The notes under the pieces: model-generated
What the model was told of the DNA's origin: nothing
What the model saw: the letters and a program-made list of their open reading frames with translations, nothing else
Databases searched by the model: none
Shown here: in pieces, positions 36,715 to 37,488 of the stretch
How positions within the stretch are numbered: position 1 is the stretch's first letter
Layout of the letters: every line of letters starts with the position of its first letter
Made by a program: the position numbers and the translations under genes
Origin: a virus
Lineage: Duplodnaviria > Heunggongvirae > Uroviricota > Caudoviricetes
Length of the DNA stretch: 41,547 bases
Virus record (IMG/VR): IMGVR_UViG_2529292882_000020
Location: 1-41,547 of that record
Reading direction: 5' to 3' (one strand)

Positions 36715-37488
36715 TCAAAAATTAGGTGAGTAACGGACCGGGGACATAGCTCCTTTTTTTCTTAATTCATCTGGTATTTTTTTTCCAAGATAAAGATTTG
36801 CTATTTCAGGTGGGGCTTCTCGACCTTCAAAACCATAGCGAGAACTTTGTGTTGCCTCAAAGTCCGGATCCTCGTCCCAGTATTTCATCGTAGGGAAATT
36901 TTCACGTGTTGATTTGAGCCATTTATCAGCAATGAAAACCCCTCGAACGATCCCCCTTACAGTAGCAAGAATGACTTCTGCTTGGCTGGCGCGAGAGACA
37001 TTAATGCGCCAGCTAAATCGAACCGCATCATAAAGCTCTGAATCCTTTGCACTTCTGTTAACGGAAATCATTAATGCTTTATGATGAAATGTTATGGTTT
37101 CGGGTTGATATGTTGCTATCAACTCTTTGACATGCGCGGCGCCGAATTCATTGCTGCCAGCACCATTCATGATATTCGTTAACCCAGGGTAGGCATCAAT
37201 AAGTGCTGCTTCAACTTCGTACGCCGTCTTTTCATCAGTCATTCCGTGTCGATGGATGACATGGATAACCTCAAGTCCTGCTAACCTTATTTCTCTAATT
37301 TGCTTTAGCTTGTTGCTCAGTAACTCGTCATCATCAGTCGCTGCCACTTCACCGCGCATATGGGCAAATACGCGGTTACCTTTGCCTTTCCCTACATAGA
37401 AGGTGCTTCCGTCCCTCGGATCAATCAATCGGTATACATACCAGCCAAGGTGTTCAATTACTCCAGAAGGAAACTCAGTAATATCCAT
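36715..37488 (-). CDS. GIY-YIG nuclease-domain protein with uncharacterised C-terminal domain (257 aa)
   Basis: [30 protein letters not shown] (GIY-YIG with conserved Arg); ATG at 37488; AT-rich. Confidence 0.6.

Follow-up and report, generated by a model that had tools for sequence, protein, structure and literature searches.

A GIY-YIG cargo gene at the end of an Escherichia coli prophage very probably encodes the type IV restriction endonuclease CMoRE (PD-T4-3)

Introduction

Near the end of an E. coli prophage, a gene for a 257-residue GIY-YIG protein stands by itself next to a restriction–modification (R-M) system. What does this gene encode, and how are it and its neighbors packaged within the prophage? 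We address these questions for a 41,547-bp stretch of viral DNA (IMG/VR record IMGVR_UViG_2529292882_000020), which is referred to below, at its full length, as the window. The original prediction, made from the letters of the sequence, treated the protein as an uncharacterized stand-alone cargo product and proposed that it is a single-gene anti-phage nuclease or a modification-dependent restriction enzyme.

Liu et al. (PMC12923530) trace PD-T4-3 back to E. coli ECOR68, in which it came to light through a functional selection by Vassallo et al. (2022); we draw this link from their citation and from the name of the PADLOC model. In the clinical isolate NILS69, deletion of PD-T4-3 makes the strain sensitive to two phages (an activity in the native host, reported in 2025), and the cloned gene protects K-12 against four Tevenvirinae phages. 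The enzyme from E. coli O157:H7, named CMoRE, acts in a non-abortive manner and lowers plating by some five orders of magnitude for T2, T4 and T6 (PMC12923530). It binds and cuts only DNA that contains 5-hydroxymethylcytosine (5hmC) or its glucosylated form (5ghmC), and neither unmodified C nor 5mC DNA; two modified sites are required, and cleavage occurs at CN11/N9G to leave 2-nt 3' overhangs (PMC12923530). The N-terminal GIY-YIG domain is the cutter and a C-terminal domain with a new fold is the sensor for 5hmC and 5ghmC (PMC12923530).

Results

The gene belongs to the PD-T4-3/CMoRE family

The features of the locus are collected in Table 1. On the minus strand, the open reading frame extends over 36715–37539 if it is read from an upstream TTG, and an internal ATG at 37488 gives a 257-residue protein (MDITEFPSG...SPNF). 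This ATG is the start both in RefSeq, where a 774-nt coding sequence of identical DNA is annotated, and in the crystallized protein; beyond it, the frame stays open for 17 codons (37489–37539) up to the TTG.

Table 1. Coordinates of the features at the cargo end of the prophage, in window positions.
Feature	Position	Strand	Evidence
CMoRE / PD-T4-3 coding sequence as assigned here, 257 aa + stop	36715..37488	-	PADLOC, PDB, phrog_5356 and RefSeq matches
GIY-YIG nuclease region, with GIYxY-YIG motif and putative catalytic R39	37159..37488	-	Pfam PF22945, translation
Predicted acidic autoinhibitory loop, D52-D53-D54-E55	37324..37335	-	Translation; loop placed from sequence
Predicted C-terminal domain for sensing modified cytosine, roughly aa 125-257, with Y127	36718..37116	-	Similarity to 9U75
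Hairpin copy a	36654..36694		Repeat families D2 and D11, alignments, folding
Degenerate hairpin copy b	37672..37704		Repeats, alignments, breakpoints
Hairpin copy c, distal boundary of the R-M cassette	40822..40862		Repeats, alignment, folding
Divergent AT-rich intergenic region between CMoRE and methyltransferase genes	37489..37849		GC content (34.9%)
Dcm/M.EcoRII-type C5 cytosine methyltransferase, neighbor outside the system	37850..39325	+	Pfam PF00145 and PF18284; NCBIfam PRK10458, 927 bits
EcoRII restriction endonuclease, 404 aa, neighbor outside the system	39360..40574	-	Pfam EcoRII-N and EcoRII-C; PDB 1NA6

The protein matches the PADLOC model PDLC04031 (PD-T4-3) over its full length, with residues 1–256 aligned to profile positions 1–255 of 256 (E = 2.4e-140, 464 bits), and phrog_5356 is matched with an E value of 2e-143. 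It is identical at 253 of 257 positions (98.4%) to chain 9U75_A of PDB entry 9U75 (E = 3.7e-172) and is 85.2% identical to chain 9U7U_A of entry 9U7U. Both chains were deposited as 'GIY-YIG domain-containing protein'; they are the O157:H7 CMoRE (9U75) and the APEC O1 CMoRE (9U7U), whose structures were reported by Liu et al. in 2026 (PMC12923530). RefSeq protein WP_000355484.1, encoded in strains A29, CH4799 and O157:H7 7409, is 100% identical. The stretch from pin to the methyltransferase gene that contains the frame (36600–37900) is at least 80% covered in 756 of the 5,426 complete E. coli genomes. None of the NCBIfam profiles matched the 257-residue protein, and the only informative models were a LEM-3-like Pfam model and those of the defense-specific libraries.

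The 257-residue GIY-YIG gene is already known, and not new: it is the PD-T4-3/CMoRE enzyme. On the strength of these sequence comparisons, we are highly confident that its product is CMoRE (PD-T4-3), a stand-alone restriction endonuclease of type IV whose gene is prophage cargo. The activity foreseen in the original prediction, that of a single-gene anti-phage nuclease or modification-dependent restriction enzyme, is the one published for the 98.4%-identical protein (PMC12923530). The label 'uncharacterized' has to be given up, as the PADLOC family PD-T4-3, activity in a native host, dependence on modification and structure are all on record, and the claim of novelty goes with it, the protein being clearly homologous to a characterized restriction enzyme of known specificity.

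The nuclease motif, the acidic loop and the sensor domain are retained

Pfam model PF22945 (LEM-3_GIY-YIG) matches residues 28–110 with an E value of 2.1e-14 and 54 bits (cut-off, 27), and thus places a GIY-YIG domain in the N-terminal part of the protein, where it had been predicted; the generic GIY-YIG model PF01541 remained below threshold in the Pfam search. As read from the translation, the GIYxY-YIG motif consists of G15, W16, Y17, V18 and Y19 followed by F30, Y31, V32 and G33. All of the residues named in the text of PMC12923530 are present (Y17, Y19, Y31, R80, V92, L96 and Y127), including the three whose roles were established there by mutagenesis (Y17, Y19 and Y31). That text gives no residue number for the catalytic arginine. 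By its spacing after the YVG motif, R39 is the putative catalytic arginine, and by position R39 and E91 or E93 are the candidate catalytic residues. Residues 1–50 and 56–168 are identical to those of 9U75, so the catalytic Arg and Glu are retained.

The plus strand at 37324–37335 reads ctcgtcatcatc, of which the reverse complement, GAT GAT GAC GAG, encodes DDDE. The corresponding residues are DDDD in the crystallized O157:H7 protein and DDDE in the APEC O1 protein. In O157:H7 CMoRE, this inserted acidic loop keeps the enzyme off ordinary DNA, and changing its four consecutive acidic residues to alanine (mutant 4A) results in the cutting of ordinary DNA and in toxicity (PMC12923530). Our numbering of the loop as residues 52–55 is set from the sequence, the text of PMC12923530 numbering none of the four acidic residues.

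The C-terminal ∼150 residues matched nothing in Pfam or NCBIfam, in agreement with the original prediction that they resemble no recognized domain, and Liu et al. likewise found no homologues of the sensor domain of CMoRE (PMC12923530). Residues 111–257 differ from 9U75 only by Q169K and N197H. Together with T51A and E55D (window residue first), these are the four differences between the two proteins, and all four are conservative. Two of them are within the autoinhibitory loop or next to it, where they might in principle alter its stringency; E55 is common to the window protein and the active APEC O1 protein. That T51, E55, Q169 and N197 define an allele with an altered substrate range is much less likely than the already doubtful reading of the hairpin repeats as dedicated cassette boundaries, which is taken up below.

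Upstream region and expression signals

The AT-richness that had been noted for the gene and its upstream region is evident from their G+C contents of 43.8% (gene) and 34.9% (the 361 bp upstream), as compared with 55.4% in the structural region (17000–34000). The divergent intergenic region presumably holds the native promoter. Its upstream part, to ∼37686, travels with the CMoRE cassette: homology to O157:H7 strain 7409 extends up to 37686 at 99.3%. A promoter scan upstream of the gene returned no strong sigma-70 consensus and no promoter on the correct strand. By eye, a TTGTGA-17 nt-TAATAT sequence located ∼20–50 nt upstream of the ATG, with 8 of 12 matches, is a candidate promoter. No Shine-Dalgarno-like sequence was found before the ATG at 37488. 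Native-promoter constructs of CMoRE gave defense, with the native promoter of the APEC O1 allele being much weaker in this respect (PMC12923530).

With no clear promoter or ribosome-binding site found, and with pseudogenes in many related prophages, the gene might be regarded as a leftover of prophage decay that is inactive or silenced. We consider this to be very unlikely. The frame is intact, and the identical protein is present in at least three unrelated strains, one of them an O157:H7; all functionally tested residues are conserved; PD-T4-3 is active in its native context in NILS69; and the prophage in the window looks complete. An intact CMoRE gene is the reading that we carry forward.

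CMoRE is cargo at the end of a thrW prophage, beside an EcoRII system

The window comprises an E. coli prophage integrated at thrW (tRNA-Thr(CGU), 1369–1444), adjoining proA. In strain CH4799, the matching partial thrW repeat is located ∼3.1 kb past the point that corresponds to the window end; if the source strain is arranged as CH4799 is, the CMoRE gene would lie inside the element. In the annotation of a closely related prophage, that of strain PigCaeca_1, the region for regulation and lysis is lambda-like, the head is of the HK97 type, and the contractile tail is accompanied by Mu-like baseplate genes, an invertible tail-fiber segment and pinE. The CMoRE gene directly follows that of the pin invertase in the opposite orientation, forming cargo at the prophage end. 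It is on the minus strand and the tail and baseplate genes are on the plus strand, and it is adjoined by the Dcm-type methyltransferase and EcoRII endonuclease genes, so that both the strand and the R-M neighbor had been correctly recognized from the outset. The RefSeq start of the methyltransferase is ∼42 nt downstream of the start of its open reading frame. The endonuclease matches PDB entry 1NA6 (EcoRII) with 810 bits and an E value of 3e-243.

The divergent adjacency to a Dcm-type methyltransferase gene, in a pin–GIY-YIG–methyltransferase order that recurs in many genomes, is what would be seen if the GIY-YIG protein were an accessory nuclease of the EcoRII/Dcm system, for instance a nickase of Vsr-like mismatch repair or an additional restriction subunit. 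The gene is, however, found without R-M genes in O157:H7 (7409) and in strain 1506D011. In strain 7409 no methyltransferase gene of any kind is adjacent to it, consistent with a type IV enzyme, and the CMoRE cassette is seen without R-M genes in different prophage backbones, consistent with a single-component system. CMoRE alone defends BL21(DE3), a host that has no EcoRII/Dcm system; 5mC DNA is not acted on; and all systems identified so far are single-component (PMC12923530). A search of Pfam and NCBIfam at E values up to 0.1 gave no Vsr match and the fold is GIY-YIG, so the protein is not Vsr-like, just as originally predicted. An accessory role is therefore extremely unlikely, and the stand-alone type IV assignment is retained.

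Other features of the prophage

The EcoRII-type R-M pair is complete and is itself prophage cargo; some genomes with the CMoRE cassette are without the pair. Next to the Pin/Gin-type serine invertase gene (pin, ∼36100–36654), 20-nt inverted repeats at 34107–34126 and 36019–36038, which are 95% complementary and 1.9 kb apart, flank alternative tail-fiber C-terminal and assembly genes on opposite strands. This segment looks like a host-range switch of the Mu G-segment kind.

Three further open reading frames were noted. The first, of 248 residues (13415–14161, minus strand), lies in an islet of 38% G+C that is flanked by the Q antiterminator and holin genes, and has the opposite orientation; its N-terminal 130 residues match the PADLOC candidate PDC-M68A (E = 7.5e-27) as well as the PADLOC-labeled 'Effector / Endonuclease' and 'SAVED1--SAVED_HNH' profiles, with no match in Pfam. 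It may be a second defense-type cargo gene. The second, of 237 residues (15704–16417, plus strand), directly follows the lysis genes; it has no PADLOC match and a sub-threshold Pfam match to a histidine-kinase 7TM region (E = 0.0092), and may encode a membrane protein. The third, of 156 residues (41077–41547, plus strand), is located just past hairpin copy c and corresponds to the RefSeq hypothetical protein WP_000868823.1; nothing matched it in Pfam, NCBIfam, PADLOC or PHROGs.

Hairpin repeats coincide with the cassette boundaries

A hairpin-forming motif, AAACCGYAG(N)CACGNNGTATGCAAGAACGTGCTGCGGTT, is present in three copies in the window, where no chance matches to its 26-nt core would be expected (0 expected). 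The first base of copy a is also the final base of the pin stop codon; the copy is located 20 nt 3' of the CMoRE stop codon, at the left boundary of the cassette. It folds with –26.0 kcal/mol on the plus strand (z = –4.1) and –19.8 kcal/mol on the minus strand (z = –2.8), and has U-rich tails on both strands. Copy a is probably a bidirectional terminator; because a terminator scan found no canonical terminator and did not call this copy, the assignment is made from the folding energies and the U-rich tails. Copy b, where the CMoRE cassette ends on the right and the R-M cassette begins, folds on its own no better than shuffled sequence (z = –0.9). The corresponding values for copy c are –23.2 kcal/mol and z = –2.4.

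Homology between E. coli genomes breaks off at hairpin copies, namely at 36654 and at 37686 or 37699. Some genomes match the window only from 36654 on and have lambdoid tail-fiber assembly genes on the other side; others match only to 37686 or 37699 and are without the R-M genes; and still others carry 36654–37699 alone (loci L004–L006). In L005, a b/c hybrid occupies the position of copy b and is joined directly to the sequence downstream of copy c. The GIY-YIG gene had been proposed to sit in its own repeat-delimited cassette. This holds insofar as there are hairpins on both of its sides and the breakpoints are found there, but the copy that isolates it from the R-M genes (b) is degenerate, and the well-conserved copies a and c enclose it jointly with the R-M genes.

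By blastn, the motif occurs at 18,139 places in 5,226 of the 5,426 complete E. coli genomes, with a median of three per genome. It lies ∼200–300 bp inside the ends of the K-12 prophages Rac (L008, 7722–7769) and Qin (L009, 3471–3576), and after NleG-like (DUF1076) cargo in strain CV261. We looked for the hairpin after pinE in K-12 e14, where it is absent. Possibly, the hairpin is a conserved terminator of late operons and serves at the same time as a recombination boundary for prophage cargo. It is doubtful that it represents something more specific, namely a dedicated cassette-boundary element for swapping defense and virulence cargo between unrelated prophage families, as opposed to a mere terminator that supplies homology.

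As a separate observation, the hairpin sites that were inspected are near the att-proximal end of lambdoid or e14-type prophages, after cargo such as pinQ/ydfK and NleG-like effectors. Integron attC sites were considered as an identity for the hairpin and rejected, since, on visual inspection, the R'/R'' core sequences disagree with this.

A discrete cassette found in different prophage backbones could also be a free-standing GIY-YIG homing endonuclease that spreads by cutting alleles without the cassette. The protein has a weak PHROG match to the homing-endonuclease family phrog_314 (E = 0.0021), and its full-length homologues in jumbo phages are labeled 'putative homing nuclease'; these phage annotations are, however, putative labels. 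The site itself has neither an intron nor an intein, and no host gene is interrupted there; the gene stands free between pin and the methyltransferase gene. The 98.4%-identical enzyme depends on modified cytosine and has a loose sequence requirement, and the C-terminal domain has no match to a DNA-binding family in Pfam. Moreover, cassette boundaries at a hairpin that is found ∼18,000 times fit recombination at a shared sequence rather than homing. Homing is thus vanishingly unlikely, and a modification-dependent restriction enzyme in a recombining cassette is the interpretation that we favor.

The distal end of the cargo block offers a hint as to its source. Positions 40634–40830 of the window are 95% identical to sequence beside ssrA in the ssrA-integrated lambdoid prophage at locus L005. 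The match takes in the final 28 nt of the tmRNA gene as annotated, and copy c abuts this ssrA scar (shared within 40803–40830). An ssrA scar in a thrW prophage suggests that the block of CMoRE and EcoRII cargo came from a prophage integrated at ssrA. ARAGORN and Rfam found no complete tmRNA gene in the window. A complete ssrA or tRNA gene at 40800–41000 was likewise considered and rejected, as these programs gave only the tRNA-Thr at 1369–1444; the ssrA-like sequence is a short 3' fragment.

Proposed mechanism

The mechanism below has been demonstrated experimentally for the 98.4%-identical O157:H7 CMoRE, and near-identity allows us to infer it for the window protein. CMoRE would act as a tetramer, assembled as a dimer of dimers, whose C-terminal domains would bind DNA containing 5-hydroxymethylcytosine or glucosyl-5hmC and leave 5mC and unmodified DNA unbound. 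Two modified cytosines ∼21 bp apart would be needed. The GIYxY-YIG nuclease, with Mg2+ or Mn2+, would then cut between the sites at CN11/N9G and produce 2-nt 3' overhangs. The acidic loop D52–E55 is predicted to lie over the active site as a safety catch, and it is by this covering of the active site that ordinary host DNA would be spared. The expected outcome is the direct, non-abortive destruction of incoming T-even phage DNA.

At this locus, expression would start from the AT-rich sequence that travels with the gene (37489–37686) and would terminate at hairpin copy a. CMoRE would be safe beside a Dcm-type methyltransferase because 5mC is not a substrate. A division of labor would follow, in which EcoRII acts against phage DNA that has ordinary cytosine at the EcoRII sites and CMoRE against phages in which cytosine is replaced by hmC or ghmC.

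Relationship to known systems

The O157:H7 CMoRE (9U75/9U8D, PMC12923530) has the same length, two-domain layout, GIYxY-YIG motif, acidic loop and Y127 as the window protein and is likewise encoded by a single gene; the tetramer-interface residues V92 and L96 are also common to the two. In O157:H7 strain 7409, the gene follows pinE in a prophage of the same kind, and its product is 100% identical to that of the window; the EcoRII R-M cassette is inserted beside the gene in the window and is missing in strain 7409. The APEC O1 CMoRE (9U7U/9U7Z) has the same fold and tetramer and shares the DDDE loop, but differs from the window protein by 38 substitutions, mostly in the C-terminal domain, and its native promoter gives much weaker defense (PMC12923530). 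A Capnocytophaga member of the family, PD-T4-3Capno (Rodriguez-Rodriguez et al. 2025, PMC12366544), is reported to be 48% identical to PD-T4-3. It too is modification-dependent, degrading modified T4 DNA and sparing T4-GT7 DNA, and its catalytic mutants lose defense. PD-T4-3Capno also degrades Mom-modified (carbamoylmethyl-adenine) Mu DNA, an activity unreported for the E. coli enzymes (PMC12366544).

In K-12 e14, the gene for McrA (EcoKMcrA) occupies the same slot, att-proximal and directly downstream of pinE (L003 6686–8180, as compared with window 36100–37488). McrA is an HNH nuclease that targets 5mC or 5hmC in methylated sites. It is thus likewise a single-gene modification-dependent nuclease, but an unrelated protein, and mcrA is on the same strand as pinE whereas the CMoRE gene is on the strand opposite to pin. 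Because e14 holds mcrA there, the slot after the tail-fiber invertase gene appears to be recurrent for restriction-type cargo.

The PvuRts1I/AbaSI family consists of type IV enzymes that depend on 5hmC or ghmC, the same substrate class as that of CMoRE. Their cleavage geometry is very similar to that of CMoRE: they cut at a set distance (∼11–13/9–10 nt) from the modified cytosine, leave 2-nt 3' overhangs and favor two symmetric sites. Their architecture combines a nuclease domain of the PD-(D/E)XK type with an SRA-like sensor. CMoRE instead joins a GIY-YIG nuclease to a sensor domain to which Liu et al. found nothing homologous (PMC12923530).

Full-length CMoRE homologues with 38–45% identity are also encoded by jumbo phages of Serratia, Pectobacterium, Pantoea, Pseudomonas and Klebsiella (∼250–285 kb), where they are annotated as 'homing nuclease' or hypothetical. 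These homologues may be used by phage against phage.

Discussion

The enzyme at this locus was discovered in 2022, validated in a native host in 2025 and solved structurally and mechanistically in 2026. What the locus adds is an arrangement: a type IV enzyme directed at hmC and ghmC is stacked beside the classical type II system EcoRII in the terminal cargo slot of a prophage, the slot in which K-12 e14 keeps McrA, and the limits of the cargo cassettes are set by a widespread hairpin, a site of recombination between prophage genomes. The remaining value of the locus is contextual; the protein is known, but its packaging perhaps is not.
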